A stretch of DNA of 59,096 nucleotides from a virus (IMGVR_UViG_3300021185_003222:1-59096), one strand, 5' to 3'; positions 4,161 through 58,455 are shown, counted from the stretch's first letter. The notes: generated from the sequence alone by a model not told the origin. Numbers and translations: made by a program.

Positions 4161-7100
4161 CTATTTTTTATTAGCGTCTTGAATAAGTTTTATTCTGTCT
4201 GCTTCTTTTTTAGCTTTGTTTATTCTGTAAGTTCCATATCCTAGACTTTTAAGCATTTTAACTTGCTCAGCTTTGTTAAGCTTTTTTAAGGTTTCAAAGT
4301 CAGTAGATCCAGATGCTGCTTTTACTCTATTCTTGGATTTGTTTATTTTATTATCTGCTTTTTGTTTATCAGTCATGGCAGGAGCAGTAGGCTCAGACAT
4401 TATATTCCATTTTGGCCAACCAGCCATCATAGCTATACTTTGCCATGTTTCTGTGTCCTCAGCTAAAGCTGCATCTATATTATCGTACTTTTGTAGTAGT
4501 CTATCTAAAGGAATATTAGTTGTAGCACTTATAACTTTAGCACCTGACATCGCAGCTGGGTTATCTAGGCTAAATCCTTTACTATATATTTCTTCTCTTC
4601 TTTTCTTACTATCAAAAGGATAAGCTGCTTGTTTTATTTTATTTATCTTAGAACTAAGTGGTGGTGAAAATTGTGTAAGTTTCCACGCGGCATCAACATA
4701 CTCAGGCCTATCTCTATTAGATCTTTCGTATATATCAAGCAAAAAGTTTTTAGCAACTGATATAGAAGCTCCTCCAATACCTGTACCTCTCAATAAGCCA
4801 TCTAGCATTCCATTCACTGTTCTATTTATTGCTTTTCCGTTGTTCTCAAACGTTTGATCATCATCTGCTGCTATCTTAAACAAAGCGTTTTGAAGACCAT
4901 TAAATATCATATTTTGAACAAAGCCATAGTATATTATTTTACTAACGTTTTCCTTAGCATCTCCTCTTCCATTTTTAAGATCTTGAAAAGCTCTTTTTTG
5001 TATACGAGCATATTGCATAGGTGTATTAGCAAACATAAGTATTAAACGACCAGCATCACTTGATTGCTGACTTGATATTCTACTTGGATCAGCTGATTGC
5101 TGCGATTCTTCAGATTTTTGTCTCCACTCTATTAAAGCTTGCTTTTCAGCTTCAACTAGGGTTTTACCTTCATTTTTAACTAAATCATTTATTCTGTTAC
5201 GATAAAACGTAGCACCGCCAGACGCTATAGCGAAGCTATCAGCATATTGAGTAGGTGCATAACCTTTTTGTAGTATGTACTGTATTCCTGCTTTAAACTT
5301 GTTCTTACTAGTAGAAGCTGCGTCAGCTATTTCACTTTCATTTATGTTAAGCTTAAGACCATTACGTCTATCCATTAAGTAGTCAGAGTTTAATAGTTTA
5401 GTAACGTCTTTCCAATACTGTGGTTGATTTGCTACAGCGGCACCAGCTTTAAGTGGATTATTAAAAGACCAGTTAACATAATTTATATTAGAAATCATCT
5501 GCAAAGCTGCTGATCTAATGTTAAAGAACATTATAGCCGCATTAGATCCGTTAACGTAATCTAGCATTTGATTACTTAATCTATTACCTCCAGCTAGTCT
5601 ATTTTTACCAGCTTTCATTCTAGCTAGTATGTTTTCTAAAGATTCTCTATATTTACTTCCATATATAGCTTCAAGCTTATTTAAGTTTTCTTTACTATAT
5701 ATTTGATCTACATTTGACTGCCACTCTTCTAAATACTTAGATCTTTTACCTGTGTTTATTAAATCTAACAAGTCTGTAGTTATAGTTCCTGCTAACCAAC
5801 TCTCTCCTGGTTTAGCATAACCATCACCTTTTGTAACGCTAAGTATCTGCTCTGCAAAAGTCATTAAATTTGAATCTGATTCAACAACTTTCATTAAGTC
5901 TGCTTTATCAGTTTTGCTAAGCGTTTTGTCTAGCTCTTTACCATAACCTGCTTTTTCAAACAAATAAACTCTAACAGCTTGCTCTTTAGTAAAACCTGTT
6001 TTAGCTTCTTTTCTTAAATCTTTAGGAACATTAAGCTCTTTTTTCAAAGCTTTAAAATCAGTTAATAACTGAACTCTATCTTTTGATAAATTGTCCATAG
6101 CTCTAGAATAAGGATTAATTAAATTTTCCTTGTACCAAGCCATTTGTTTGTCACCTAATTTTCCTTTTGTCAATGTTGGATATATTAAACCAACAAAATC
6201 CTCAGCAGAGTGAGGAATAAAAAATCCAAACTTACCTTTGCTAGCTCCAATAGTTTTAGCTTTGGCAGCTGAATATTCTTTGTAATACTCTATACCTGTT
6301 GATTCTTCTAGTAGCTTATTAAACTCTAAGCTTCTGTTTTCACTATTACTAGCAAATACTTGTTGTGTTTTAGATTTTATATCTAAAGGTTCTAAAGCTT
6401 CTTTAACAGCTTTAACATTAGCCATAGCGTCGTCAGCAAAGAAAAAGTCGTTGTAACCTTCAGCGGCTTTACTAACCAACCATTGCGCTTTAGCTTCACC
6501 TGTTGAATTACCTAAACCAGTTATATTTTCTAATGGTATATCTAATCCTTCAGATTTTAAAAACTCATGTATTGCTTGTTGAGATTCAGGCGCTCTTGCG
6601 GTTAATACAAATACATCGTCTGTACCTCTAGCATCTCTAATCTTTTCAGCAACCTTAAACATAGGGCCTCTCTCACCTTCTCTAACAATGTTAAAGTCAG
6701 TAAAGTCCATAACTGCTCCCTCTTCTATTAAAGACTTGCCGTCTCTTGCAAATTCCTCAGCGTTTAAGACACCTCTTTCATTTTCGTATACTTTAGTCTT
6801 AACTTTATTTACAAAGTCTTTAGGAAGAGGTTTTCCATATTCTATAGTTTCTGTATCTATTTCTATAAATTTATCTCCTAGTTCTTCTCTGTATTTCTTA
6901 ACACTTTCTTGAACAGCTTTTGATGTTTTTTCTACTATAAAACTAGGTAACGATCTTTCTTTTCTAGCTTTGTTTCTAGAAACAGCAGCTTCAGTAGAAG
7001 TTTCTGCATGAACCATAAACACTTCGTAACCTTGCTCTTTAAGTTTGTTAACTTTTTTCATAGTTGCATTATAACTAGCACCTGTCCCGTCTATAATCAT

Positions 7101-10100
7101 ACCTTCTCCAGCTTGTCTGTACTTTTCCATTTTAGCTTCAGCAGCTTTTCTACCAGCAAAACCAATTTTAGATCTTTGGCTTTTCTGCTCTTTGCTATAC
7201 ATACTTTCTGCTTCAGGCAGTCCTACTTTAGCTTTTTCAGCTTCTATAAATATATCTTGATTAACAACTTTCCAACCTTCTCTACCAAGCTCCAAACCTT
7301 TTCCAATGTTTGATTTACCAGATCCAGGTCCACCAATCATAAATATAGCTTTACGTTTAGGTGAAGGTTTTCCAGATGTGTTAGGTCTGTTATAAAATAC
7401 TAAACTTTTACTCTTGGCTAACGTGTCGTCAAAGTCAAAAACTCTTATCTTTTTAGGTTTTTTGTTAGGCTTTCTAGCTAATTCTAATGCTTTATCATTG
7501 TTTTTAGCATTATTTAAGAAATCAACATTAGTTCTAGTATTAGATTCTGAAGCTGCAAAAACAGGATCACTTTTTAAATTGTCTTTAGCTAGCTTCGGGT
7601 TAATGGCTAGCTCAGCAGATTTAGCCCAAGCTTCTCCTTCAACTTTGCCTGTTTTAAAATTATATATAGACCTCATGTTTGGATCATACATAGAAGATTC
7701 ATTGTAGTATCTAGTGCCATCAACAGGTGACAAAACCTCATAACCTGTTCTACGTAAAACACCATCCATTTTGTATGGAATTATATTAACATAAAAGTCT
7801 TCATAAGCTAATTCTAACTCTGTCTTACCTTTTTGATTTAACTCAATCTTGTTTGTACCTTCAATTGTCTTTAAATTATCTTTATTTGAGTATACTTTTA
7901 ATAAATCTAATAACATTTTTTCAGCAGACTTATTATGCTCCCATGTCAAAAGTTTTTCACTTTTACTTTTGTTATCTCTAGGATCAATGTATTTACGGCT
8001 ATTAGTTGTTATTAGTTTTTCACCTTTTAAAGGTATGTATATGCCTCTAACAGGAGCTGCTAATCTAAGAACACTTCCCATACTATTTTTTAAAGCCATC
8101 ATAGCTATACCCATTTGAGCTTCTGGTGATACACCTGACTTAGTGGTAGTTATTTCTCCATTAACGAAAGCTTGAGTTTCGCTTAATATTTGAGTTTCTA
8201 AAAACTTTCTTGCTTCTAAAGCTACTCTATCATACTCCTCAACAAGTTCTTTTACTTTTCCAGATTTATAGTCAGATAATTTAGAATTAATATTTAATCC
8301 AGCCTGTTTAATAAAGGTTTCAGAGTTATGAAAGTTGCTACCACCATATTTCTTTACTTTAAGTTTTTTATCACCCTGAGTTAATGTAGTTTTTTCTAAA
8401 TTAATTCCATATTTATTTATAACACTATTTAATCCAGCTCTCCAATTAGCAGTACCTCCCCAATAAACATGTCTTTTACCTCCTATAGTCGATGAGTTTG
8501 TGTATTGTTCATTAAGAGAAGATAAAACTTCTGCTGCTTTTAGCTTGTCAGTAGAGTTTTCCATGTAGTCACTCCAAGCTGCTTCATCTCTTAATCTTCT
8601 AGCTTTTTGAACATCTGGATCTGTAGACACTTCTTGTAACTCACCTCTTTTTAAACCTAAATAATCTTCGTTTATTCTTTCAAAATCACCTTCTATTATT
8701 TCTTTAGTGTGATCTTTTAAAAACTTTTCAATATCTACCTTGCTTATTTCTTCATATTTTTTTATATTATATTCCACACTAGCCTCTGCTTTTTTAAGGC
8801 CCTTTGCTAAAGCATCTATTATATCGTTTTTATCTTTAGTAGTGTAGAAATCATCAAATAAGTATTTTTTAACAACGCTTCTGATTTGTGTTCTATCTGG
8901 AACACCAGCGTAGTTAACTTTAAAATCTTGAGCTATATCAGATAATTTATTTTCTAAAAAGTCTTTTTGTTTAGGTATATCAAAGTCTCTTAAAGCAGTT
9001 TGAGATGCAGAATAAATGTTTTTAGCTGATCTAAGATCGTTAACTTGATTAGACAAGCCTAGCTCTTGAGCTCTTTCAGAAAATGCTTTTAAAGTCATTT
9101 CTTTAGTTATATATCTTAAAACACCTTTTAACGTTTGAGCTTCACTTTCTCTTTGTGTAAACGAAGCTTCTTTTCTCTTGTCTTTAATACCTATTTTACC
9201 TAAAAAATATTCTTCTGAAAATTTGTTTTTTGTCCATAAAAAATCATTACCAATACGTTGATCTGTTTTAGTAAAGAAGTCTCTTTTTATGTTTCTGTCA
9301 ATACCTGTTGGCTGGTTAATTTTTCCAGACGATGCAGATATATTAATATAGTTATCTCCTTTTCTAGACTTTGGATGTTTAATTCTTTCTGTTGTATTAC
9401 CTTTGTAAGCATATTCTCTCAATACAGGAACATTGTTGTAAGGCATTAAATCAATAGCTTTTGCAAAATTAGGATTTAAACCTCCACCCATCATCCATCG
9501 TTGCGCAACTTTTGCTTCAGGTATATTTAAGTTTTTCTTTGGATCAGTTATAGCTTCCTCTCTAAAACTAAAGTTAGGATCTTTTAATACTTCTTTACCA
9601 AAGGTTGTTAAATCATTTTTCAACTCTTTAGCTGCTATATATGGAATATCTTTTATTAAATTATCAAAAGTACCTAAATAAGCGTCCATTGTTTCAGGAA
9701 CAAAAGGATATTTACCTTCGTCAGTTATTTTTTTCTTTATCTCGTTAGATAGCTCAAACCTGCTTTCTGGACTTAACATACCTAAAGAGTTAGTTCTACC
9801 AGCTCCAAAAGGTTCAGCAGATCTTTCAACTCTTAATGATAATTCAGCTTGACCTTCTCCTCTACCTGCTTTGTCTGATAAAGCTTTCTTTTCGTAAGCT
9901 TTAAAAACATCTAATTTCTTTTTGTTTAGGTTTAATGGATTAAATATCCAACCAGCTAAACCACCTTTTTCACCTTTTATATTTTGAGGATCCCAACTTC
10001 TAACTACATCGTTAATTTTATCTCTTACGTCTAATATGAATTGATCTTTACTAAACGCTTCACCTTGTATTATAATCTTATCACCACTGATTTTCATTTT

Positions 10101-13100
10101 ATCTTTACCAGTGCCTTCTATAATCATAGCGTCAAACTTACCGCTATTAACTAGTTTAACGCCATCCTTAACTCTACCAGCGTCCCACTCTTCTTTTGTT
10201 AACTCAATGTTATTATTCTTGTCTCTTGTTATTTTTAAAGCTTTATCAACATCTTCATTAAAAGATCTTTGTTCTGTTTTAGATTTAAAATAATTAGGAA
10301 CTTCAACATCTGTTTGTTTCTCAGACTCTTTACTAAAAAGATCTAATAAACCTTGATCTATTTTTTTATTTTTAGCTTGATTAAAAAATCTGTTTACAAC
10401 TCTGCCAATGTCTTCTCCAGTTGATAAACCTAGTTCTTTATTAAATATATTAGAAATTCTTTCTTTAACTCCTTTTATTTGTTTTACTTGATTTAGTTTA
10501 AGAGCATCTAGAAATATATTTAATTTTTCCTCGTACAAAGCATCTATAGATTTATCCTTACTATATTGATCTGTAAATCTTTTGTTTATAAGCTTTTGAT
10601 AGTGTTCAGGTAATGAGTTAACAAAAGAGTCTATAATTTCTCTACCTTTTTCACCTTTTAATGAGTTCTTTAAAAAAGCATGAAATAATTCGTGACTAGC
10701 AGCACTAGTAGCTCCTGTTCCTATCTCTCCTCCACCGCCAAGTATTCTTTGTTTGTTTATATATATTTTATTTTCTTTAGGGCTATATAAAGCATCTGAT
10801 TTTTCGTTATTTTTAAATGTTTTCTTCCATTCATCCATAGATGGTACCTCCACAACCTCTTTAACACCAAAACTTTCAGCTATAGATTTAGTAAAATCTA
10901 AATCAGACTTGTAGTCTACAGCCTCTACCTCTTTCATTTTGCCTATATTCTCCTGTTGCTTACCTGCTAGCTCTTTTTGTTCAGCTTTTAAAGTATTTAA
11001 CTTACCATCAAGTAAGCTCTTTTCAGTCATTACCTCAGCTCTTCTTTCTACAGGTACTCCATCAGACTTAGCTGTTTCATTATCAAGCTTTATTTGTTCA
11101 ATTTGATTCTCTACGGTAGCTATCTCCTTAGCCACTTCAAATTCTTTTTGTCTATCTTCTATAAAGCTTTTTTTAATATTAGGATCAGATATTTTTCTAG
11201 CCTGCATGCCAGTTACTTGACCTTGATTAACTAGAGCATTTAGTTGATTAAATTGAAAGCTTTTTGGATCTATACCCATCGCATCGGCGATAATTAAAGA
11301 TGTATTTCTATTTGTGTTGTTTTTACCTTTAATACCTTCTGTCTTTAGATTATCAAGAAGATCCATTTCTTTTAATGTCAACTTCTCATTACTAACAAGT
11401 TTTCTACCTATTATCTCAATTTGAGTTTGAGTAGATTTCATTTTGTTATCTCTTTCAGACATCCATGTTTGAGCGTCTGAAACGTCCTTGTTCATCTCAG
11501 CTATACCTTTAGCTGCTTCAAGCTCTGACAACTCCTTAGAACTTAATTCTTTGCCTTCTGTCTTTGATTTAAATGCTTTTTCTATAGTTGCATAATCATT
11601 AACTCCACTTAATCCTAATGTTTTATTAGCTTTTCTTACAGCTCCACTATTAGTTTCCATACCTTTAACTAATCTTTCTATAGATTTAACAGGTCTTCCA
11701 CCAATATGTAGTAATCCAAATTGTATTATTTCTTTAGCCCAAGCTCTACCACTAGTTAGATTTTTATATATTTCATCTAACCTATCTTTCTCTTTTGGAT
11801 CATTCCAGTCACCAACTAAAACTTCACCTGCTGATATTGCTTTTGATATTGTAGTTGGTATTGTACCAGCTACAGTTGCTCCAGCTACAGTCTTTAATCC
11901 AGGAATAGTAGAAAACGCTCTAATTATTTCCGAACCTCCACGCATATAGTTGGTTAATATTTTTTTAGATATTTTTTGAGTTATAACGTTACCTACTCCA
12001 AAAAAGAAACCATGCTCAACAGGCATTTTTTCTTCACCCATTTCCTCTAGAAAGCCATTAGCTATATTCATCTTTATCATTTCAGCAGATCCATGAGTAA
12101 TAAAATCTATAGTGCCGTTGAATACAGTTGAACCACCACCTCTAAAACTATTTTTCATTAGCTGGCCAAAAGGACCTCTTAAATATTTTAATGTAGGAGC
12201 TACGCCTGGTATTGTTTCTGCTAGTGCAAAAGCAGCTACCATCTTTAATAAACCTGGTGCTTCATCTACTAATTCTTCTCCAAAACTTTTTTCAATTACA
12301 TCATTCTTTAGAACATCTGGATCTATTTTTAAACCTGAAGCTTTTATTACAGCTCTAGTATTTTCAGCTAGCATTTCGGGATTTTTACCAGCACCTATAA
12401 AATCACCAACTTCAGACCAGTTTTCTGTACCTACAAAAGATCCTACTATTTGTGTATAATCATAGAAATTTGTTTCTTCAGCTGTCATAGCGTTAACGTT
12501 AAGCTTTAAAGCTCTATTTAAAACAGCTATATCATCTATTAAGGCATCGTGCTTTTTAGCTAAAGCTATTGAGTTACCGTCACTTCTTGTATTTTCAACC
12601 TCTGACAATATTTTTTTAAGACCTTTAGGCACAACTCCAGTTTTATTAAAATAGCTTATATACTTAGCATAATCAGCCTTAGACCTTTCAGACATGCTGA
12701 AACCGTCACCAATAGAAGAAGCTTCTAAATCACCAGACAGGTCACTCATTTCAGAGTATATACCTTTTAATTCATAAAACTTTTTTCTTCTTAGATCTTC
12801 TAAGTAATCTACAGTTGGTCTTTCTTCAAAGTTTAAAATGCTTTTAGCTTTTTCTGTAATTTCTTTATCACCTATTTTTTGTTCTTCTGTTGCTTTTGTA
12901 ATATCTATTAAAGTGCCAGTTTTATTATCATATATTTTTTCACCTAAGTTTAATTCTTTTTTTACATTTTGAAGATCTTTATCAGCTTCGTTTATAAAAG
13001 CTTCGTATTTTTTAGCTTCTTTTACATTTCCAGAATTTAAAAGTGTCTGCTGTTTAGCTCTTAAGCTATTAATAGAATTTTCAAATTTATAAACCTTAGC

Positions 13101-14258
13101 CTCGTTCTCATTTAAATTAGAGTAGAATAAAGCATTAAGCTGAGAGTCAACAAATCCTTTTTGAGCATTAGAGTCTCCATCAAATATTTTTAAATCTTTA
13201 TTAGCCTCATTAGTTGCTATAATATTCATATAAGCATCAGAAGCCTTATCATCAAAAACTTTTGAAGGATCTACTATTATGTATCCTTTTTTAGATATTT
13301 CTTCACTGTAAGCTCCAGGCATTGATAAATAAGATAAATCTTTACCGTTTACATTTCTAGGTATAACAATTAAATCACTATCAGAACCAACCGTCATGGG
13401 AGCAGAACTGTAACTAGAAGCTATATTATCAACAAAATCACTATGATTCTTAATTAATGAAGCGTCTATGTCAAGAAGTTTAGGAAGAACATCCTTAGCA
13501 TTTTCTTTGTTAACACTCTTTAATGGGTTAACACCTTTTTCTCTGTATTCTTCAGCTTTCTTGTATGACTCTTCGTTGTTTTTGTTAATATTTAGTTTAA
13601 TAGAGTTTTCAGGAACCTTGTGAGTGTAAGATTTTCTGTCTTGATAATCCACATTGGATTCTAAAACTATATCTATAGGGTTTTCTGTTACTAAGCTTTT
13701 TAAATTAGAACTAGTATTTTTATTTACAAAACCTACAAAGGTTTCATATGCTTTAGCATTTCCTTGACCTTTATTTCTATTGTATTCTGTGTTTAATCTT
13801 ATAGATTTACCTTGGCCAGTTGTTTTGTCAGTTACATATATTTGATCATACATATAACCACTTTGACCTATCTGTTCTTCAAACTCATAGTCGTCCCCAT
13901 ATTTTTCTTCTAAAACAGGTATTAAATCTTGTTCTTCAATATTATCAAAAGAGTTTAATTCTATATCTTTAAATTTTTTAATATTAGATTCTAGTTCATC
14001 TTCTTTCTTTACAGGCTTCACTTCGCTAACAAGTTCTTCAGCATCAACTATAGGTTCTTTAACTGATAAACCGTAAGTGTTTTTTATTAAATCTAGTTTG
14101 TTATCGTCGACACCTTCAGGGTCATACTTAGAGTATAAGTCATTTATTAATAAATCATAATCGTCACCATACGTTTCATTAATTAAATTAATTTTATCTT
14201 GGTCAATTTCTTGACCAGCTTTTTTTGAATAAAAATCTATTAAAAATTCATTTATCAT
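4161..14258 (-). CDS. Giant (3365 aa) internal virion/ejection polyvalent protein with HExxH zincin motif, sigma-2-like segment, HAD phosphatase and nested P-loop kinase
   Basis: Last gene of the structural arm after tail genes; HELFH (10680-10694), VFDFDDTL (DFDDT at 7422-7436), GGPGSGKS (7311-7334), VLTAR and FFADD HAD motifs. Confidence 0.75.
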   Translation of the reverse strand: MINEFLIDFYSKKAGQEIDQDKINLINETYGDDYDLLINDLYSKYDPEGVDDNKLDLIKNTYGLSVKEPIVDAEELVSEVKPVKKEDELESNIKKFKDIELNSFDNIEEQDLIPVLEEKYGDDYEFEEQIGQSGYMYDQIYVTDKTTGQGKSIRLNTEYNRNKGQGNAKAYETFVGFVNKNTSSNLKSLVTENPIDIVLESNVDYQDRKSYTHKVPENSIKLNINKNNEESYKKAEEYREKGVNPLKSVNKENAKDVLPKLLDIDASLIKNHSDFVDNIASSYSSAPMTVGSDSDLIVIPRNVNGKDLSYLSMPGAYSEEISKKGYIIVDPSKVFDDKASDAYMNIIATNEANKDLKIFDGDSNAQKGFVDSQLNALFYSNLNENEAKVYKFENSINSLRAKQQTLLNSGNVKEAKKYEAFINEADKDLQNVKKELNLGEKIYDNKTGTLIDITKATEEQKIGDKEITEKAKSILNFEERPTVDYLEDLRRKKFYELKGIYSEMSDLSGDLEASSIGDGFSMSERSKADYAKYISYFNKTGVVPKGLKKILSEVENTRSDGNSIALAKKHDALIDDIAVLNRALKLNVNAMTAEETNFYDYTQIVGSFVGTENWSEVGDFIGAGKNPEMLAENTRAVIKASGLKIDPDVLKNDVIEKSFGEELVDEAPGLLKMVAAFALAETIPGVAPTLKYLRGPFGQLMKNSFRGGGSTVFNGTIDFITHGSAEMIKMNIANGFLEEMGEEKMPVEHGFFFGVGNVITQKISKKILTNYMRGGSEIIRAFSTIPGLKTVAGATVAGTIPTTISKAISAGEVLVGDWNDPKEKDRLDEIYKNLTSGRAWAKEIIQFGLLHIGGRPVKSIERLVKGMETNSGAVRKANKTLGLSGVNDYATIEKAFKSKTEGKELSSKELSELEAAKGIAEMNKDVSDAQTWMSERDNKMKSTQTQIEIIGRKLVSNEKLTLKEMDLLDNLKTEGIKGKNNTNRNTSLIIADAMGIDPKSFQFNQLNALVNQGQVTGMQARKISDPNIKKSFIEDRQKEFEVAKEIATVENQIEQIKLDNETAKSDGVPVERRAEVMTEKSLLDGKLNTLKAEQKELAGKQQENIGKMKEVEAVDYKSDLDFTKSIAESFGVKEVVEVPSMDEWKKTFKNNEKSDALYSPKENKIYINKQRILGGGGEIGTGATSAASHELFHAFLKNSLKGEKGREIIDSFVNSLPEHYQKLINKRFTDQYSKDKSIDALYEEKLNIFLDALKLNQVKQIKGVKERISNIFNKELGLSTGEDIGRVVNRFFNQAKNKKIDQGLLDLFSKESEKQTDVEVPNYFKSKTEQRSFNEDVDKALKITRDKNNNIELTKEEWDAGRVKDGVKLVNSGKFDAMIIEGTGKDKMKISGDKIIIQGEAFSKDQFILDVRDKINDVVRSWDPQNIKGEKGGLAGWIFNPLNLNKKKLDVFKAYEKKALSDKAGRGEGQAELSLRVERSAEPFGAGRTNSLGMLSPESRFELSNEIKKKITDEGKYPFVPETMDAYLGTFDNLIKDIPYIAAKELKNDLTTFGKEVLKDPNFSFREEAITDPKKNLNIPEAKVAQRWMMGGGLNPNFAKAIDLMPYNNVPVLREYAYKGNTTERIKHPKSRKGDNYINISASSGKINQPTGIDRNIKRDFFTKTDQRIGNDFLWTKNKFSEEYFLGKIGIKDKRKEASFTQRESEAQTLKGVLRYITKEMTLKAFSERAQELGLSNQVNDLRSAKNIYSASQTALRDFDIPKQKDFLENKLSDIAQDFKVNYAGVPDRTQIRSVVKKYLFDDFYTTKDKNDIIDALAKGLKKAEASVEYNIKKYEEISKVDIEKFLKDHTKEIIEGDFERINEDYLGLKRGELQEVSTDPDVQKARRLRDEAAWSDYMENSTDKLKAAEVLSSLNEQYTNSSTIGGKRHVYWGGTANWRAGLNSVINKYGINLEKTTLTQGDKKLKVKKYGGSNFHNSETFIKQAGLNINSKLSDYKSGKVKELVEEYDRVALEARKFLETQILSETQAFVNGEITTTKSGVSPEAQMGIAMMALKNSMGSVLRLAAPVRGIYIPLKGEKLITTNSRKYIDPRDNKSKSEKLLTWEHNKSAEKMLLDLLKVYSNKDNLKTIEGTNKIELNQKGKTELELAYEDFYVNIIPYKMDGVLRRTGYEVLSPVDGTRYYNESSMYDPNMRSIYNFKTGKVEGEAWAKSAELAINPKLAKDNLKSDPVFAASESNTRTNVDFLNNAKNNDKALELARKPNKKPKKIRVFDFDDTLAKSKSLVFYNRPNTSGKPSPKRKAIFMIGGPGSGKSNIGKGLELGREGWKVVNQDIFIEAEKAKVGLPEAESMYSKEQKSQRSKIGFAGRKAAEAKMEKYRQAGEGMIIDGTGASYNATMKKVNKLKEQGYEVFMVHAETSTEAAVSRNKARKERSLPSFIVEKTSKAVQESVKKYREELGDKFIEIDTETIEYGKPLPKDFVNKVKTKVYENERGVLNAEEFARDGKSLIEEGAVMDFTDFNIVREGERGPMFKVAEKIRDARGTDDVFVLTARAPESQQAIHEFLKSEGLDIPLENITGLGNSTGEAKAQWLVSKAAEGYNDFFFADDAMANVKAVKEALEPLDIKSKTQQVFASNSENRSLEFNKLLEESTGIEYYKEYSAAKAKTIGASKGKFGFFIPHSAEDFVGLIYPTLTKGKLGDKQMAWYKENLINPYSRAMDNLSKDRVQLLTDFKALKKELNVPKDLRKEAKTGFTKEQAVRVYLFEKAGYGKELDKTLSKTDKADLMKVVESDSNLMTFAEQILSVTKGDGYAKPGESWLAGTITTDLLDLINTGKRSKYLEEWQSNVDQIYSKENLNKLEAIYGSKYRESLENILARMKAGKNRLAGGNRLSNQMLDYVNGSNAAIMFFNIRSAALQMISNINYVNWSFNNPLKAGAAVANQPQYWKDVTKLLNSDYLMDRRNGLKLNINESEIADAASTSKNKFKAGIQYILQKGYAPTQYADSFAIASGGATFYRNRINDLVKNEGKTLVEAEKQALIEWRQKSEESQQSADPSRISSQQSSDAGRLILMFANTPMQYARIQKRAFQDLKNGRGDAKENVSKIIYYGFVQNMIFNGLQNALFKIAADDDQTFENNGKAINRTVNGMLDGLLRGTGIGGASISVAKNFLLDIYERSNRDRPEYVDAAWKLTQFSPPLSSKINKIKQAAYPFDSKKRREEIYSKGFSLDNPAAMSGAKVISATTNIPLDRLLQKYDNIDAALAEDTETWQSIAMMAGWPKWNIMSEPTAPAMTDKQKADNKINKSKNRVKAASGSTDFETLKKLNKAEQVKMLKSLGYGTYRINKAKKEADRIKLIQDANKK

Positions 14259-52246: not shown

Positions 52247-52277
52247 ACAGATTTAATACAAGATATATAAGATAATA
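52247..52277 (+). promoter_or_regulatory. Early promoter-like motif copy 1
   Basis: ACAGATTTAATAC-N10-AGATAATA. Confidence 0.7.
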
Positions 52278-52304
52278 TATACGAATCTAAATTAAATAAA
52301 CAAT

Positions 52305-52553
52305 ATGACTATCAATTTAAAATATAATAAACTCAATTCAATTCTAAATAACAATTCTGAAATACATTACATAATTGACTCAGACAATTTCTTCGACGAG
52401 AATAATATCAACATGTCTCAATTCAATAATAATAAATTTATATTATTTGAATACACAACTAACTGGCCTGAAACTATTCAACTATTAAAACAAAATAACA
52501 TAAACTATTCTATTCATACTGACGAACTAGAATTACAATATATAATAATCTAA
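52305..52553 (+). CDS. Early hypothetical protein (N/I-rich)
   Basis: 82-aa ORF directly after motif copy 1. Confidence 0.55.
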   Translation: MTINLKYNKLNSILNNNSEIHYIIDSDNFFDENNINMSQFNNNKFILFEYTTNWPETIQLLKQNNINYSIHTDELELQYIII

Positions 52554-52667
52554 TTAACTAATATATCACTCAATTATAATAAACATCTGATATTCAGGGT
52601 AAATTATAGAGAAGTCGCGTGTAGTACCTACTAACTAAAATAAACTAATAAACAAACATACACTCAC

Positions 52668-52698
52668 ACAAACTAAATACAAAACCACTCAGATAATA
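52668..52698 (+). promoter_or_regulatory. Early promoter-like motif copy 2
   Basis: ACAAACTAAATAC-N10-AGATAATA. Confidence 0.8.
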
Positions 52699-52724
52699 TA
52701 TATAACTAAAATAAAATATATACT

Positions 52725-52955
52725 ATGACATTTAAAATAACTAACATAACATTAAAAACTTTTACATCAAATAATAAAAACTATAATAATATTAACTACA
52801 CTATTTTTATTAAACAACTAAATCAAACAATTAATATTACTAAACAATATATTAACTTTAAAACTAAAAACTATTTAATTGACATAATTGACTCAATAAA
52901 TAATCAAGACAATTTAAATAATCAACTAATAAACTTTATAAATAACAAATATTAA
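52725..52955 (+). CDS. Early hypothetical protein (nearly G-free coding strand)
   Basis: 76-aa ORF bracketed by motif copies 2 and 3. Confidence 0.5.
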   Translation: MTFKITNITLKTFTSNNKNYNNINYTIFIKQLNQTINITKQYINFKTKNYLIDIIDSINNQDNLNNQLINFINNKY

Positions 52956-52957
52956 AT

Positions 52958-52988
52958 ACAAACTAAATACAAACAGCAACAGATAATA
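52958..52988 (+). promoter_or_regulatory. Early promoter-like motif copy 3
   Basis: ACAAACTAAATAC-N10-AGATAATA. Confidence 0.8.
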
Positions 52989-53029
52989 TAAACGTAAACT
53001 AAATAACAAATAAATAAAATAAAATAAAT

Positions 53030-53266
53030 ATGAAAACTAATAACTTAACTACTAAAAGATTTGTAATCAGAAAATCATTACTTAATACTAATACAGTAAT
53101 CACTTTCACTAACAAAAAAGATATAACATTCACTTATAATCACGATGAAATTTATACTAAGTTTCAAACTAAATTTGACGAAATGAATTGTTTTCAAAAG
53201 TATAAATCTTATACAAATAGTAATACTGTTCCAAAATTCTGCAGAGAATTAAGTACTCAGTCTTAA
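53030..53266 (+). CDS. Early hypothetical protein
   Basis: 78 aa (TKRFVIRKSL...CFQKYKSYTNSNTVPKF). Confidence 0.65.
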   Translation: MKTNNLTTKRFVIRKSLLNTNTVITFTNKKDITFTYNHDEIYTKFQTKFDEMNCFQKYKSYTNSNTVPKFCRELSTQS

Positions 53267-53331
53267 AACTAAAAGTCGACGTTGATAGTAATACTTTAAC
53301 GACTATAAATAACACGAACATATTACTCAGC

Positions 53332-53362
53332 ACAAACTAAATACTACAAAGTGTAGATAATA
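53332..53362 (+). promoter_or_regulatory. Early promoter-like motif copy 4
   Basis: ACAAACTAAATAC-N10-AGATAATA. Confidence 0.8.
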
Positions 53363-53388
53363 ATATAAACTAAATAAATATAATAACT

Positions 53389-53592
53389 ATGTCTTATAAT
53401 CCAAACAATCCAAGTAATTGGTCGTGGTCAAAAGCTTTTGCAGAAATGGACAAAACTGTTCATGAAGCTGAAATGACTCAACAATGTATAAATCACATAC
53501 TAGATTATCCTGGTGAAGCTAATGGTGTCTTTATGTCACTAAACAAAACTCAACAAGATGATGTTTACGAAATACTAAATGAAATACTATGA
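53389..53592 (+). CDS. Early hypothetical protein
   Basis: 67-aa ORF after motif copy 4. Confidence 0.6.
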   Translation: MSYNPNNPSNWSWSKAFAEMDKTVHEAEMTQQCINHILDYPGEANGVFMSLNKTQQDDVYEILNEIL

Positions 53593-53726
53593 ATAATTTA
53601 AATACTACAATAGACAAAGTAGCAATGTCAGAATTTGACACGCACTACTATCAACTTGGTGATAACGAGAAACAATGGTGTCACGATGAAATGATTAATA
53701 ACAAGAAATGGTTAAAAAGAATATGA
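53589..53726 (+). CDS. Early hypothetical protein (45 aa)
   Basis: Read manually: MNNLNTTIDKVAMSEFDTHYYQLGDNEKQWCHDEMINNKKWLKRI; ATGA overlaps at both ends. Confidence 0.55.
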   Translation: MNNLNTTIDKVAMSEFDTHYYQLGDNEKQWCHDEMINNKKWLKRI

Positions 53727-53980
53727 ATAAAATAATACTAACAATTGGAATGGCTAGTTCGTTACTAGTCTTACCAGCAAAAAAAGATGGTACAATAGTA
53801 AACTCAGTAGAACAAAATAAATATCTACTAAGTGAAGCTTTAAATAATATCCAGAATATGAGAGAATGGATGCTAAGTGATATAGACAATGATAATATAA
53901 CTACAGATCTAGGTGAATTTTATATTGAAAATCTTAATGAAGTTGAAGATATATTAATTGAAATTGCTAATACAAATTAA
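53723..53980 (+). CDS. Early protein with N-terminal hydrophobic signal/anchor
   Basis: MNKIILTIGMASSLLVL..., acidic C-terminus; ATGA coupling favours start 53723. Confidence 0.55.
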   Translation: MNKIILTIGMASSLLVLPAKKDGTIVNSVEQNKYLLSEALNNIQNMREWMLSDIDNDNITTDLGEFYIENLNEVEDILIEIANTN

Positions 53981-54002
53981 ATACAATCACTAATAGATAA
54001 TA
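53972..54002 (+). promoter_or_regulatory. Early promoter-like motif copy 5
   Basis: ACAAATTAAATAC-N10-AGATAATA. Confidence 0.8.
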
Positions 54003-54007
54003 TAATC

Positions 54008-54259
54008 ATGAAATATATACAAACAGATAACTTAACAGTTATAGATTACGGTGACGACACAGGTAAACTACTAATATATAATAGAACTAAATCACCTTAC
54101 GGTTACAACCCAAGAAATCTTATTGTATCTTTATTTGGCAGACCACTAAAAGAAATTACGTACAACTATGTACAAAAACAAGTAGACAAAGTCTATTCTA
54201 CTTTTAACTATAACGAAATAGACGAACTAATAAATAAAATAAATAATGAAAATAAATAA
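54008..54259 (+). CDS. Early hypothetical protein
   Basis: 83-aa ORF starting 5 nt after motif copy 5. Confidence 0.6.
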   Translation: MKYIQTDNLTVIDYGDDTGKLLIYNRTKSPYGYNPRNLIVSLFGRPLKEITYNYVQKQVDKVYSTFNYNEIDELINKINNENK

Positions 54260-54386
54260 TATAGCTCCAATAGTATTCGGAATACTAATGATAACACTAA
54301 TAGCACTTGCAACATCTTGTACAACTCAAGAAAAAATGGTAGGTAATTATTATAATCACTCTAAATATTGTCCAGCTTATAACTAA
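54246..54386 (+). CDS. Small lipoprotein (46 aa)
   Basis: Read manually: MKINNIAPIVFGILMITLIALATSCTTQEKMVGNYYNHSKYCPAYN; hydrophobic signal and ATSC lipobox. Confidence 0.6.
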   Translation: MKINNIAPIVFGILMITLIALATSCTTQEKMVGNYYNHSKYCPAYN

Positions 54387-54387
54387 T

Positions 54388-54621
54388 ATGAAACTAACTA
54401 ACGAAGAAAAAGACGAAATTACTTGGAAAGTAGTTGACTCACTATATGAAAAATTAGCTAACGAGCTAGAATATGAACTACAAGAACATGAAAACTTTCC
54501 AGAAACTAATGATGCTTATATGGATTTATTCAATGAAATGACTATAAAAATAGTAAAGTATATGAGAAGTGAGCTGTTCTCTCCAGGAACAAGTGAGGAT
54601 TTAGAACTTTATAAAAGATAA
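54388..54621 (+). CDS. Early acidic hypothetical protein
   Basis: 77-aa ORF. Confidence 0.6.
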   Translation: MKLTNEEKDEITWKVVDSLYEKLANELEYELQEHENFPETNDAYMDLFNEMTIKIVKYMRSELFSPGTSEDLELYKR

Positions 54622-54624
54622 AAT

Positions 54625-54795
54625 ATGACAGAACAACAAGCAATTGAAGCAATCGCTAATGATATACAGGATGGTATCTACGGTTGGACACAGAAATGTG
54701 GAACAGAGTGGCAGAAGTGGACATACTCACTAAATCTAGCTAGAAAAATATATGAAGGTGAATTAATAATAGATTTAAGTATAGACAATGAATAG
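54625..54795 (+). CDS. Early hypothetical protein (56 aa)
   Basis: Read manually: MTEQQAIEAIANDIQDGIYGWTQKCGTEWQKWTYSLNLARKIYEGELIIDLSIDNE. Confidence 0.55.
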   Translation: MTEQQAIEAIANDIQDGIYGWTQKCGTEWQKWTYSLNLARKIYEGELIIDLSIDNE

Positions 54796-54970
54796 AGATA
54801 GAGAATGGGATTTTATGGAAGAGCATAGAGAAGAAGAAAAGTCTTTGCTAGCAACAGTAGGAATAGTAGTCAGAGAACTAACTATAAAGTGTCCTAATGA
54901 TCAAGAACTAGGTAAAGAAGTAAGAGAACTAATTAAAAAATACAAATTAAATACAAATACTAACAGATAA
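54788..54970 (+). CDS. Early hypothetical protein
   Basis: 60 aa with PNDQELGKEVR motif. Confidence 0.6.
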   Translation: MNRDREWDFMEEHREEEKSLLATVGIVVRELTIKCPNDQELGKEVRELIKKYKLNTNTNR

Positions 54971-54972
54971 TA
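54942..54972 (+). promoter_or_regulatory. Early promoter-like motif copy 6
   Basis: ACAAATTAAATAC-N10-AGATAATA. Confidence 0.8.
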
Positions 54973-54977
54973 TATAT

Positions 54978-55121
54978 ATGAAAACAATTAAATTTTACGC
55001 AAGTAACAGATCACTAATCAGATTAGATGGCAAATTACTAAAAGGTTACACTATAGATAGTATACCAGACGAATATACAAGCTGGTTCAACTACAAAGGC
55101 TTAACTTACATAACAAGTTGA
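54978..55121 (+). CDS. Early hypothetical protein (47 aa)
   Basis: Read manually: MKTIKFYASNRSLIRLDGKLLKGYTIDSIPDEYTSWFNYKGLTYITS. Confidence 0.55.
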   Translation: MKTIKFYASNRSLIRLDGKLLKGYTIDSIPDEYTSWFNYKGLTYITS

Positions 55122-55131
55122 CAAACAACTG

Positions 55132-55179
55132 ACGAATTATAGCTCATACTTAACCTGTATGGGCTTTTCGTGGTATGAA
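55132..55179 (+). promoter_or_regulatory. Structured leader element, short copy
   Basis: AGCTCATAC/GTATGGGCT stem then TTTCGTGGT-ATG; 19-nt identity with 58081-58099. Confidence 0.6.
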
Positions 55180-55618
55180 ATGTAACCACAATATTCCACA
55201 AGCAAGATTAGATCTTGGCTATACTGAGTGTGTTGATTGCTCAACAGTAGAAAAACTCGGTTGTATCGACACTATTCATCACAAAACAGGCAACACTATT
55301 CAAGTAATGTCACGTGAAGATGCAGACAAAGCTAGTAAGCTCACTCAAAGAGCAGGCTTTGGCATACTAAGATCCATGGCAGGTGGTTCAAGTCAACGTA
55401 AACCTAAGTATAAATACGATGGATGCTCAACTACTTATGTAGGTAACGACAATATGTTCGAGCAAGTAGGTAAAACTTACATCGATTTCTTAGATGTTGA
55501 CAAAGAAATTGCAGAGCGCTATCTCGATCGAGCGCTAAACAATCTAGAAATATCTCAATTACAATATAATAAGATAAAACTACTTTGTAACAGACTAAAT
55601 ACGATCACTATTAGATAA
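55175..55618 (+). CDS. Protein with N-terminal DksA/TraR-like zinc-finger fragment
   Basis: CNHNIPQARLDLGYTECVDC matches the C..IP..RL.......C..C pattern. Confidence 0.55.
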   Translation: MKCNHNIPQARLDLGYTECVDCSTVEKLGCIDTIHHKTGNTIQVMSREDADKASKLTQRAGFGILRSMAGGSSQRKPKYKYDGCSTTYVGNDNMFEQVGKTYIDFLDVDKEIAERYLDRALNNLEISQLQYNKIKLLCNRLNTITIR

Positions 55619-55620
55619 TA
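55590..55620 (+). promoter_or_regulatory. Early promoter-like motif copy 7
   Basis: ACAGACTAAATAC-N10-AGATAATA. Confidence 0.8.
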
Positions 55621-55633
55621 TATTAAATAATAT

Positions 55634-55792
55634 ATGAATAAAATAACAAAACAACTCGAAAACTTGTATTCTTGGACAAAATTCTATCAAGATCGAGGTA
55701 ATAAAGAAGCAATTAGAAAGTGTCAAACTGAAATAGCCCAGTTGAAAATGGCTTTTAACCAACTAAAATCTAACAAAAATGGCAAAAAATAG
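55634..55792 (+). CDS. Early hypothetical protein (52 aa)
   Basis: Read manually: MNKITKQLENLYSWTKFYQDRGNKEAIRKCQTEIAQLKMAFNQLKSNKNGKK. Confidence 0.55.
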   Translation: MNKITKQLENLYSWTKFYQDRGNKEAIRKCQTEIAQLKMAFNQLKSNKNGKK

Positions 55793-56171
55793 AACGCTAA
55801 ACGAAATTAGACAATCAAAAGAGTATCAACAAGCTGTTGAACTAAGTGATCAAGGCGGTAAGTATACTGTTCCAAGTAAAGGCCACGCTGCTGTAGCTTT
55901 AAAAGAATTAAAAGGTGAAAACTTTTATGAAAATCCTTTTTCTCATGCAGATGTAGACGAAACTGTTGAAACAATAGTAGAAAAGCTAGATGGTCACATG
56001 TATGACTTAATATTTCAAGCAGTTTGTGATGAAATGAATAATCACTATGTATTTGACTCAACAGAATACTTAACTCAAGCAGGTTTAGAACTATTTGAAG
56101 ACGAATGGTTCGAGTTTTATCATGAAAATCATGGTAGAATAATTAATAAACTACTAAAAAACTTAAAATAA
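55779..56171 (+). CDS. Early acidic hypothetical protein
   Basis: 130-aa ORF. Confidence 0.6.
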   Translation: MAKNRTLNEIRQSKEYQQAVELSDQGGKYTVPSKGHAAVALKELKGENFYENPFSHADVDETVETIVEKLDGHMYDLIFQAVCDEMNNHYVFDSTEYLTQAGLELFEDEWFEFYHENHGRIINKLLKNLK

Positions 56172-56365
56172 TGAAGAAATTTAACGGAATGGAGTCAAAT
56201 CTTATTATAGATGCGCTACAATTTTATGTAGCTCAAGTAGAAAAAGATATATTAGAATTAGAAAAAGAAGGTAAAACATCTATATTTGCACCTGGTTTTT
56301 ATACTATGATCTCAAAAGACTTGAAAGATAAAGTAAAATCTATGACTAAAAAAGCAAAAATATGA
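56171..56365 (+). CDS. Early hypothetical protein
   Basis: 64-aa ORF, coupled both sides. Confidence 0.6.
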   Translation: MKKFNGMESNLIIDALQFYVAQVEKDILELEKEGKTSIFAPGFYTMISKDLKDKVKSMTKKAKI

Positions 56366-56811
56366 ATTACGCTATATTTGACATGGATGATACTCTATGC
56401 ACTTTAGAGCATCGTAGAAACAAAGCGATGGAATCAGGTAGCATGAATTTTAATATATTATTTGATCCTAAGCTAGTTGAATACGACTTACCTGAAGATC
56501 ATGTAGTAGATTTAGCTCAAACACTAAAAATGTTTAATACTAAAATAATAGTAATGACAGCTAGGCCATATTATATGGATATAGCTACACGTAAGTGGTT
56601 GGTTAAGAACAACATACCTTTTGATCAATTAATAACTAAAGAAAAAAATAAAGTATTTCAAAAGTCTAGCTTATGGAAAGAGTCTAAATTACAAGAGCTA
56701 TTAGAAGATATTAGTATTGAACAAATAGTTTTATCTATTGATGACAATATGGATAATCAAGCTATGTTTGAATCTTATGGAATACCAATTTTTAATCCAC
56801 TATTACAATAA
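56362..56811 (+). CDS. HAD-family phosphatase (T4 PseT 3'-phosphatase-like)
   Basis: AIFDMDDTL, VMTARP, WK, SIDDN = HAD motifs I-IV. Confidence 0.8.
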   Translation: MNYAIFDMDDTLCTLEHRRNKAMESGSMNFNILFDPKLVEYDLPEDHVVDLAQTLKMFNTKIIVMTARPYYMDIATRKWLVKNNIPFDQLITKEKNKVFQKSSLWKESKLQELLEDISIEQIVLSIDDNMDNQAMFESYGIPIFNPLLQ

Positions 56812-56813
56812 TT

Positions 56814-56844
56814 ACAAACAAAATACAAACACTATAAGATAATA
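56814..56844 (+). promoter_or_regulatory. Early promoter-like motif copy 8
   Basis: ACAAACAAAATAC-N10-AGATAATA. Confidence 0.8.
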
Positions 56845-56849
56845 TAAAT

Positions 56850-57071
56850 ATGATATACGACAGACTTAAACCACATATCAAAGCCAATATGAAAGAAAAT
56901 GCTAAAGAGTATAAAACTGTAAACTGGCTACTTGATACACTAAAACAAAAACACAGTTATTCTGACTTAACTATCGACGAAATAAGATCTATATGTACAT
57001 TTGGCGATGTATGGTATCACGATCTAACTCAAAGAGACATTATATGGGGTGATTGGCTAACAAATAAATAA
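56850..57071 (+). CDS. Early hypothetical protein
   Basis: 73-aa ORF starting 5 nt after motif copy 8. Confidence 0.6.
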   Translation: MIYDRLKPHIKANMKENAKEYKTVNWLLDTLKQKHSYSDLTIDEIRSICTFGDVWYHDLTQRDIIWGDWLTNK

Positions 57072-57072
57072 A

Positions 57073-57420
57073 ATGACAGAAGAAAAACTAGCAATAGAAA
57101 CACTCACTGCACTAGGTTGCAAAGATGTTACAACAAATAGACAAAAGAAAAACGGTACAACTTGTTTTGAATTACCTACAGGTGACATTGTTTCTGAACA
57201 TAAAACGGGTTATATTAGAAAATATATGACTTGGAAAGGTAAGAAAATAACCTGTTATCAACTAAATCCACAATACAAAACTCCATATAAAATGATTTGG
57301 TCAAATGGCGAGCTGTATGAAGGAACTCATAACAGAAGAATGTTGATATTTAATAGAGCTGAAAGACTAAAAAGACTTGTATTATATACTATTAAGCAAA
57401 TAAATCAAGCTAATGGATAA
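57073..57420 (+). CDS. Early hypothetical protein
   Basis: 115 aa (DVTTNRQKKNGT...GYIR...CYQLN). Confidence 0.65.
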   Translation: MTEEKLAIETLTALGCKDVTTNRQKKNGTTCFELPTGDIVSEHKTGYIRKYMTWKGKKITCYQLNPQYKTPYKMIWSNGELYEGTHNRRMLIFNRAERLKRLVLYTIKQINQANG

Positions 57421-57505
57421 TGACAAAAGAGACTTAGCGCTAATAATGGCAGTTTTAGCGCTAATGCTATACACAATTTTACTAACTGTCTCAATATTAA
57501 ATTAA
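57413..57505 (+). CDS. 30-aa single-transmembrane peptide
   Basis: Read manually: MDNDKRDLALIMAVLALMLYTILLTVSILN; fills the gap. Confidence 0.45.
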   Translation: MDNDKRDLALIMAVLALMLYTILLTVSILN

Positions 57506-57515
57506 ATTAACTAAC

Positions 57516-57965
57516 ATGGAACAAAAAGAACCAACACAAGAAAAAATAATAGAAGCTGTAAAAAAGTATTACGGCTTAAAAATAGATGAAAACGCTTATA
57601 TGAACGCAGACGTATATGCATACGAAGAAACAACCGCAGATGGTTATTCTGTATATGTTGTAACAGGCGATATGAATAGTGTATGCATAGCTGAAGATGT
57701 GTATTATTATGAAAGTGATATACCGTCAGCAATTATGGAATATGTAGAGTATGCTAATGGCCAATGTACAATATATGCAGATCAATACTTCTTAGATGAT
57801 ATATACTTTGACGATATGTTACTAGAATCATTTCAAGAAGTAGCAGACAAGATATATGACGAAATTATGAATGAAGACAGTGACTACAACTTTGACATGG
57901 CAGAACTGCAATGGTTAAAAGAAGAATTTACTGAATCAGAAGAGATTAATCAGACTGTTAGTTAG
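57516..57965 (+). CDS. Highly acidic, aromatic-rich early protein
   Basis: 149 aa dominated by D/E/Y. Confidence 0.65.
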   Translation: MEQKEPTQEKIIEAVKKYYGLKIDENAYMNADVYAYEETTADGYSVYVVTGDMNSVCIAEDVYYYESDIPSAIMEYVEYANGQCTIYADQYFLDDIYFDDMLLESFQEVADKIYDEIMNEDSDYNFDMAELQWLKEEFTESEEINQTVS

Positions 57966-57983
57966 TTAATAGTAGTTTAGTTT

Positions 57984-58417: not shown

Positions 58418-58419
58418 TT

Positions 58420-58450
58420 ACAAACTAAATACAACAACTAACGGATAATA
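58420..58450 (+). promoter_or_regulatory. Early promoter-like motif copy 9
   Basis: ACAAACTAAATAC-N10-GGATAATA. Confidence 0.78.
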
Positions 58451-58455
58451 TTAAT

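Follow-up and report, generated by a model that had tools for sequence, protein, structure and literature searches.

How might a phage direct transcription of its early genes when the promoters do not look like those of its host and no RNA polymerase gene can be recognized in its genome? Two routes of early transcription are known, in which either the host holoenzyme acts on host-like promoters or a polymerase is injected, as in the N4, crAss-like, and phiKZ-like phages. The question is raised by IMGVR_UViG_3300021185_003222:1-59096, the record of a whole virus (59,096 bp, 33% G+C, ~94% complete by estimate), which in its full length we call the window. It carries nine copies of a promoter-like motif on the plus strand and, on the minus strand, a gene for a giant protein of 3365 amino acids (aa). 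An initial annotation of this DNA had proposed, from a likeness noticed by eye, that the protein holds a segment resembling regions 2.2 and 2.3 of sigma-70 factors, and that the phage may inject this segment to redirect the host polymerase to the nine motifs. Our analysis suggests that aa ~1355-1465 of the giant protein are probably a very divergent, region-2-like domain of the sigma-70 family with a lineage-specific beta-hairpin insert; delivery of this domain in the virion is a tentative explanation of how the motifs are read.

The open reading frame (ORF) does encode the 39-residue peptide that had been singled out, FSKDQFILDVRDKINDVVRSWDPQNIKGEKGGLAGWIFN (aa 1402-1440), and it lies inside window positions 9870-10150. 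The HExxH motif said to be nearby is there as well, as HELFH at aa 1189-1193, and the peptide starts 213 residues later. The parts of the protein on which the argument turns are these:

4161..14258, minus strand: the 3365-aa ORF (P0001), which encodes a giant multidomain protein.
10359..10781, minus strand: a zincin-like region (aa 1160-1300), recognized by its HExxH motif and conserved also in two divergent relatives, L130 and L131.
9864..10196, minus strand: the candidate sigma-2-like domain (aa 1355-1465), delimited by an AlphaFold2 model, invariant residues, and a window scan.
10050..10133, minus strand: a beta-hairpin insert of ~28 aa (aa 1376-1403), placed by strands E65-68 and E71-74 of the model.
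9939..10055, minus strand: the peptide (aa 1402-1440), which under a sigma reading would comprise helix 2.2, a loop, and the start of helix 2.3, in the register given by hhalign.

A word-index search recovered 13 homologs of P0001 (2238-3313 aa), which are 28-88% identical to it across aa 1150-1750. With phmmer, an exhaustive search through 1.84 billion representatives returned only 21 matches, so that all profiles of the family are thin; 3 of these matches covered the peptide, and 12 shared only a 75-residue stretch at aa 1646-1721. In 15 aligned sequences, and also in the 12 full-length ones, residues D1410, P1424, W1437, N1440, N1443, K1447, Y1455, and K1463 are invariant. The peptide region, with eight invariant residues in the 12 full-length homologs, exceeds the rest of the protein's middle in conservation, and the invariant residues around the peptide argue that it is a functional core and not a linker. 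An AlphaFold2 model of aa 1330-1520 reached a mean pLDDT (predicted local distance difference test) of 73.4 and a pTM (predicted template modeling score) of 0.59, with 10-residue blocks at 59-90 over the first 130 residues. It predicts that the candidate domain consists of a helix, the beta-hairpin insert, a helix, a loop, and a kinked long helix. The insert sits between the elements that resemble helices 2.1 and 2.2, a position at which L130 and L131 have nothing. Helix 2.2 would correspond to SKDQFILDVRDKINDVVR, followed by a loop that ends in an invariant DP and by a helix 2.3-like element that begins at the invariant W1437.

We compared this family with sigma factors by several methods. 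When 14 trimmed family segments were scanned singly against 24,736 Pfam families, the best match overall was to Sigma70_r2 (PF04542), with an E value of 0.01 and 16.1 bits. It was made by the segment of the homolog P0014, which is 23% identical to that of the window, and it aligned residues 66-96 with positions 24-54 of the 71-position profile; the matched stretch reads RFDPTKDVKFSTWVYN, and the consensus of 13 natural extracytoplasmic function (ECF) sigma factors reads F.xD....TW..RIA.N. Against 19 natural ECF-size sigma ORFs drawn from five Bacteroidota genomes, hhalign aligned the family at P values of 0.007-0.03 and in the register of the initial annotation (SKDQFILDVRDKINDVVRSWDP......LAGWIFN against DADDLTQEVFIKVHKAIDNFR......LFTWIYR). 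The observed score was reached by 1 of 150 column shuffles in one series and by 2 of 150 in another, reversed sequences scored 10.6-11.0, and a positive control that set ECF against larger sigma factors gave a Prob of 92.7. The cleanest control, because its null is made of real profiles that share phylogeny and composition, compared 52 windows from the 12-sequence full-length alignment with a region-2 profile built on 30 sigma factors. The peptide windows came out on top, scoring 22.1 and 20.1, and the remaining 50 scored at most 13.2 (all 52: mean, 10.8; standard deviation, 2.6). In a six-frame search of the whole record, Sigma70_r2 had no match, with controls positive in 11 of 14 genomes; we count the lack of any other Sigma70_r2 in the record as context for the sigma idea.

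A likeness of this kind could also arise if the peptide were the conserved helix-loop-helix of a novel domain with no tie to sigma factors, the resemblance being the product of chance, selection by eye, and methods that read the same few residues. Two of the results above speak against this: a prespecified family ranked first among all those in Pfam for a distant homolog, and the peptide windows took ranks 1 and 2 of 52 by a wide margin. A third lies in representations other than sequence profiles, since two structure libraries and a language model returned the same family. In the PDB list that Foldseek gave for the model, 17 of 46 listed rows came from sigma-factor or holoenzyme entries, with 1or7_A and 4lup_C identified as sigma by their descriptions and the other rows presumed to be sigma from chain letter and length; sigmaE (1or7_A) stood at rank 3. 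The best domain-level figure belonged to the sigmaE region-2 chain 4lup_C, with a TM of 0.48 by target length and a root-mean-square deviation of 5.3. In the BFVD list, 11 of 50 rows were named sigma factor, gp55-type late sigma factors among them, and the phage sigma factors stood at ranks 7, 9, 10, 20, 21, 27, 29, 32, 38, 39, and 46. In the ESM Atlas, 3 of the 30 nearest clusters were viral ones with Sigma70_r2 in 64% of their members; a query with aa 1476-1760 gave no usable match there.

The strongest figures came from L130 and L131, two further relatives found by a metagenome scan. They are 24% identical to P0014 over ~590 aa and retain the HExxH domain and the conserved downstream parts. 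Aligned against the region-2 profile, the four most divergent rows, which include these two, gave a Prob of 72.4 and a P of 3.3e-5 over 65 columns. The alignment spans template positions 4-68 of 79, which correspond to regions 2.1-2.4, and none of 200 shuffles reached its score (mean, 9.9; maximum, 17.7). Over eight realignments and two row sets, region 2 was found every time, at P values from 3.3e-5 to 6.8e-3; over the 16 query-template pairings tried, P ranged from 3.3e-5 to 0.64. Pfam and PDB searches with the middle segment of these two relatives returned nothing, and its sigma-like look by eye was given no weight beyond the hhalign figures. Depending on the rows and the alignment, hhalign P for region 2 lay anywhere between 3.3e-5 (Prob 72) and 0.11 (Prob 0.5), and the register was constant throughout.

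Several results weigh against descent from sigma region 2. No test passed a formal threshold. The gathering score of Sigma70_r2 is 24 bits, and the single match fell 8 bits below it; 13 of the 14 members had no Sigma70_r2 match, and Pfam searches with aa 1300-1560 and aa 1372-1460 of the window's own protein gave nothing even at an E value of 10. NCBIfam searches with 11 members found no sigma family, and PDB sequence and profile searches found no sigma factor. A region-2 hidden Markov model built from 30 natural Bacteroidota sigma factors detected only P0014 among 15 giant proteins, at 8.7 bits, and the family profile, searched back in five genomes with 137 sigma hits, recovered none of them. 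The tool's own hhalign P was 0.11 in one comparison (Prob 0.5) and 0.011 in another. Every Foldseek row had an E value above 0.08 and a probability of at most 0.44, and the ESM match shared a low count of features (106 of 256). A 601-residue model brought up no sigma row in Foldseek (best E value, 0.2), a result that is uninformative because of its low pTM of 0.44. The best hhalign figure depends on placing L130 and L131 in register with the family: HMMER leaves the candidate-domain part of L130 unaligned to the family, hhalign backs the L130 register at a P of only 0.05-0.1, one MAFFT run placed that part of L130 elsewhere, and in a separately built four-sequence alignment the sigma-2 window scored 14.8-16.3. 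Finally, the stretch had been picked by eye from a whole genome, so tests made on those residues cannot count as wholly independent.

A novel domain would be in keeping with the uniformly subthreshold scores, the 13 members without a match, the reverse profile search that found no sigma factor, an hhalign probability that moved between 0.5 and 72 with the alignment, and the thin profiles. It is harder to square with the shuffles, which reached the observed scores in 0 of 200, 1 of 150, and 2 of 150 trials, and we place it clearly below an even chance. The resemblance exceeds what chance usually produces, yet it lies below every formal family threshold. The likeness to regions 2.2-2.3 claimed at the outset thus survives in the same register under hhalign and is echoed by Pfam, Foldseek, and ESM signals, and the structural lists are rich in sigma factors, but none of these matches is significant by the standard of the tool that made it, and the structural ones all lie at E values above 0.08. 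Because several partly independent weak signals agree on both family and register, we put the probability of true sigma-2 ancestry for aa ~1355-1465 at about 0.6, a reading that is neither established nor refuted.

Sigma factors of the ECF type also carry a region 4, and a candidate for it is present some 80 residues beyond the sigma-2-like domain:

9489..9641, minus strand: a possible helix-turn-helix (HTH) resembling sigma region 4.2 (aa 1540-1590), placed by hhalign and interrupted in this phage by a 13-aa insert.

The HTH region aligned with the sigma-4.2 HTH of ECF factors at a P of 5.5e-4 when L130 was placed first, a score reached by none of 150 shuffles, and at P values of 1e-4 to 0.02 across runs. 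In a scan of 27 windows of the four divergent rows, it reached a Prob of 50-56 and a score of 29-30, against at most 21 elsewhere. An alignment running collinearly along an entire ECF factor is also possible (118 columns, P of 6.8e-4). No Pfam or NCBIfam family matched the HTH region. Two results count against including it in the sigma reading: in the 12-sequence scan of 52 windows it did not rank among the first 8, and the part of the sigma-4 template to which it aligns was matched at 24.7 by the unrelated HExxH region. The latter score warrants caution toward hhalign scores in that range; it is also a point in favor of the novel-domain explanation, since it shows that scores in the low 20s against a sigma alignment can be spurious. 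A sigma-4-like domain is possible on these alignments, and the evidence for it is inconsistent.

If the domain does descend from sigma region 2, what has it retained? Sigma-70 genetics identifies region 2.2 and the start of region 2.3 as the core-binding part. The match of the main family is confined to this part: it ends at W1437-N1440, and the NP kink and conserved N and K residues that follow are out of register with sigma regions 2.3-2.4, which melt DNA and read the -10 element. Both facts detract from a complete region 2, and together with the inconsistent sigma-4 evidence they would suit a region-2 descendant that has no promoter specificity, such as a beta-prime decoy that shuts off the host, a tether that holds polymerase at the entering DNA, or a late actor that is not packaged. 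T4 Alt offers a precedent for a packaged modifier of the host polymerase (PMC5512222). When L130 and L131 are included, however, the alignment covers regions 2.1 to 2.4, and the nine motifs, which have -10- and -35-like blocks with sigma-type spacing and are not host-like, must be read by some factor. We consider a descendant devoid of promoter specificity unlikely.

The motifs themselves are as follows:

52247..58451, plus strand: nine promoter-like motifs of the form ACAAAYTAAATACAA-N8-RGATAATAT, upstream of small plus-strand ORFs and starting at 52247, 52668, 52958, 53332, 53972, 54942, 55590, 56814, and 58420.

The nine-copy early motif described by the initial annotation is real: with up to 3 mismatches allowed, there were nine matches, all on the plus strand, and 0 were expected from 100 shuffles. 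The small ORFs behind the motifs run opposite to the virion gene block. In all nine copies, 18 bp separate a -35-like ACAAAC from a -10-like GATAAT, in line with the ~17 bp between the -35 and -10 elements of sigma-type promoters. This geometry, as read from the sequence, suits a sigma-dependent promoter better than a promoter of a single-subunit polymerase. The motif seems to lack the TTTG-type elements of primary-sigma promoters of Bacteroidota. In four copies (53972, 54942, 56814, and 58420), the end of GATAAT lies 6 nucleotides (nt) before an ATG, so that a start 7 nt downstream would coincide with the A of the ATG. In three other copies the gap measures 14, 27, and 42 nt; counted by hand, it is 27 nt at 53332 and 28 nt at 52247. 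One related viral contig, 56% complete, was scanned for the motif and yielded only matches with 3 mismatches, 5 in the forward direction against 1 in the control, which we took as chance.

Contigs from RNA libraries of other samples end, or switch to unlike sequence, beside motif copies, and loose contig ends bear variants of the motif, among them those at 53360 and 53995. The early motif may serve as a cassette border, and the pattern suggests that the early region is mosaic among strains.

Could the giant protein reach the host before any phage gene is expressed? Its ORF is the last gene of a co-directional virion block, as judged from PHROG matches upstream. The block runs from the terminase gene (30140-32356) and the portal gene (27725-30139) through four ORFs matching PHROG "virion structural protein" families to two large ORFs matching phrog_14478 and two ORFs without a match. 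It is from gene order and size that we infer packaging of the giant protein and its ejection with the DNA. The sigma-like module, which lies at the end of this block and just after the conserved HExxH zincin-like domain, with the possible HTH beyond it, could then be freed by the HExxH domain, or act within the whole protein, and bind the host core RNA polymerase. The polymerase would thereby be steered to the nine early promoters, with their -35-like ACAAAC, 18-bp spacer, and -10-like GATAAT, and at four of them transcription would start at the A of the ATG and yield leaderless mRNAs. The geometry of the motifs is consistent with their being read by the giant protein and makes no link to it. 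For the whole chain, in which an injected promoter-specificity factor is packaged, released, binds the core enzyme, and reads the nine motifs, function is presumed at every step, and its chances appear to us somewhat short of even. More doubtful still is the specific version in which a marine lineage delivers an ECF-like sigma module in the virion and so loads host core polymerase on nine promoters before phage expression, producing leaderless mRNAs.

The same position in the genome admits another explanation, that the giant protein is a virion RNA polymerase (vRNAP) in its own right, of the N4 or crAss-like type, and the stretch a part of that enzyme. A protein of 3365 aa at the end of a virion block does recall the N4 vRNAP, and the failure to recognize an RNA polymerase gene anywhere in the record would fit. 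A search of the record for the T7-like polymerase family PF00940 gave 0 matches but is uninformative, since its control was positive in 0 of 14 genomes. No polymerase was matched by sequence or profile in the PDB, a database that we take to hold the N4 mini-vRNAP and the phi14:2 polymerase. Of the acidic clusters in the protein, the only invariant ones are the HAD-type FDFDDT and FFADD, and the motifs have -10/-35 geometry and are not hairpin or T7-type promoters. Together these observations make a virion polymerase very improbable.

Outside the candidate sigma-like module, the giant protein has several further parts:

9792..9800, minus strand: an invariant G1487-R1488-T1489, seen by conservation, in the linker after the sigma-2-like domain.
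6339..7439, minus strand: HAD-like phosphatase motifs split by a P-loop kinase (aa 2274-2640), recognized from motifs and from Pfam and PHROG kinase matches.
4389..6338, minus strand: a C-terminal module (aa 2641-3290), the best-conserved part of the protein.

Among the 12 full-length members, conservation along the protein is low at aa 1-1100, moderate at aa 1350-1750, and very high at aa 2500-3250. In the zincin-like region, H1189, E1190, and H1193 of the HELFH motif (window 10680-10694) are invariant, and no Pfam family matched this region. The zincin-like domain also occurs as a separate small gene: the stand-alone proteins P0031, P0033, and P0034 (140-167 aa) match the HExxH region alone. 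The linker that holds G1487-R1488-T1489 was modeled with low confidence (pLDDT below 50 at segment residues 332-338 of the 601-residue model). The 75-residue stretch at aa 1646-1721 (window 9096-9320, minus strand), with the patterns TG..NI... and F..R...AQ..KG, is the sole middle part common to a wider set of giant proteins. N4-like polymerase motifs (AGRT and R..AQ..KG) were suspected in the protein and dropped when Pfam and PDB searches lent them no support.

In the whole protein, Pfam found the P-loop kinase at aa 2298-2483 (Zeta_toxin, E value of 4.5e-12; AAA_33, 9e-12), a weak C-terminal HeH motif, and nothing further; PHROGs found a polynucleotide kinase alone (E value of 2.5e-7). The kinase is flanked by FDFDDT at aa 2274-2279 and by LTARAPE and FFADD after aa 2550, all invariant, which we take to be HAD motifs. 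The kinase is missing from some homologs. Its pairing with HAD motifs is reminiscent of RNA-repair enzymes that join a kinase to a phosphatase, such as T4 Pnkp, and the pair could be counter-defense cargo. In the C-terminal module, 0.59-0.88 of rows, mostly ~0.8, are identical to P0001 per 50-aa window, and no Pfam or PDB match was found. The C-terminal ~650-750 aa are common to other giant metagenomic proteins (1300-2450 aa; E values down to 5e-248) that differ in the rest, and may form a packaging or ejection module that carries variable cargo domains.

Searches of 50,697 phage records by tblastn with aa 1100-1700 and aa 2600-3300 of the giant protein, and by blastn with window positions 9000-11000, gave no match. 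With the trimmed domain alignment, the word-index search returned nothing in the 68-296 aa size class at E values up to 10 and a single protein, the previously recovered P0015, in the 297-2000 aa class; a viral-contig scan found one locus, identical to P0009.

The phage itself belongs to a lineage that is common in marine data. Among catalogued phages, those nearest to it by terminase are an uncultured podovirus sampled from a spring (64% identity), Flavobacterium podophages (45%), and phages of Cellulophaga, Tenacibaculum, and Maribacter. Marine and seawater runs belonging to 17 studies (2018-2025) contain the early region, metatranscriptomic and oligo-dT libraries among them, and at least half of the early-region words occur in 17 of the 24 runs listed. 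Contigs from RNA libraries contain the early region in 4 runs from 3 studies; they are no evidence for the predicted start sites, since contigs cannot show where transcripts start and the libraries may hold DNA. The window also encodes a GroEL-like chaperonin (41810-43354, minus strand; PHROG E value of 6e-129) and a GroES-like one (32573-33166, minus strand; 5e-19), and groEL and chaperonin-10 genes are annotated in the closest catalogued relative, MW202828, too. Its ribonucleotide reductase (1999-3861, plus strand) is 77-92% identical to those on short or phage-sized contigs binned in metagenome-assembled genomes (MAGs) labeled as Ilumatobacteraceae, Rickettsiales, Saprospirales, and Sphingobacteriales. 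These labels span very different phyla, and the contigs are probably mis-binned phage sequence. The middle region of the giant protein was not found in five MAGs with close relatives of the reductase.

If the proposed mechanism is correct, it would constitute a third strategy of early transcription, a cheaper middle way in which the phage brings only the specificity subunit and leaves the rest to the host enzyme. Such a mechanism would account for the use of non-host-like early promoters, with no RNA polymerase gene, by phages of Bacteroidota, hosts with unusual promoters. It would also extend the range of domains known from giant injected phage proteins to sigma factors and would assign a testable function to one portion of a large unannotated metagenomic protein family. 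Sigma factors are themselves well known; what would be new is their delivery in the virion inside a giant protein.

Among known systems, ECF (group 4) sigma factors such as E. coli sigmaE (1or7, 4lup) are the closest in sequence and fold, through their region 2, and the register D-x-x-(D/E)-V ... (F/W)-D-P ... (F/L)-x-(T/G)-W-(I/L/V) fits the consensus of 13 Bacteroidota ECF factors. Whereas ECF factors stand alone at ~180 aa, the candidate domain is embedded in 3365 aa and lies below the Pfam threshold. In most members of its family, a beta-hairpin separates helix 2.1 from helix 2.2 and the tryptophan is followed by an NP kink; the linker has ~80 residues instead of ~25, and region 4 is doubtful.

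The polyvalent proteins (Iyer et al. 2017, PMC5512222) are likewise very large, presumed to be injected, and composed of many domains, with a zincin-like peptidase motif and kinase or phosphatase effectors; a metallopeptidase has been proposed to release their domains by autoproteolysis (PMC5512222). The giant protein shares this plan, being a virion-gene-linked protein of 3365 aa with an invariant HExxH and a kinase (E value of 4.5e-12). A MuF anchor or named LPD domains had no Pfam match in the whole protein at E values up to 1, and an LPD16 trace appeared in 2 of 14 segments (E value of 0.088). The word "sigma" occurs 0 times in the main text of PMC5512222; a sigma domain might be listed in its supplementary domain tables.

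Phage sigma factors that stand alone (T4 gp55-type late factors and ECF factors of the phiEco32 type) show that a phage-supplied sigma factor can redirect the host core polymerase. Each is encoded by a small gene of its own that is expressed after infection, and none is reported in virions, whereas a module within the giant protein would have to act before any phage gene expression. The phiEco32 sigma factor binds the E. coli polymerase and is absent from the ten virion proteins named in PMC7881722. In open-access papers and bioRxiv preprints, we found no report of a virion-borne sigma factor; phage sigma factors appear there as free-standing genes (PMC7824862, PMC5512222, PMC7881722), and the injected transcription tools described are polymerases or enzymes such as T4 Alt only. 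Virion RNA polymerases of N4-like and crAss-like phages show no sequence similarity to the giant protein in PDB sequence and profile searches but follow the same logic, in that a giant, virion-gene-linked protein is delivered with the DNA to serve phage-specific early promoters. Those enzymes carry catalysis and are independent of the host, whereas the protein described here would bring a specificity module only, so that early transcription of this phage should be sensitive to rifampicin.

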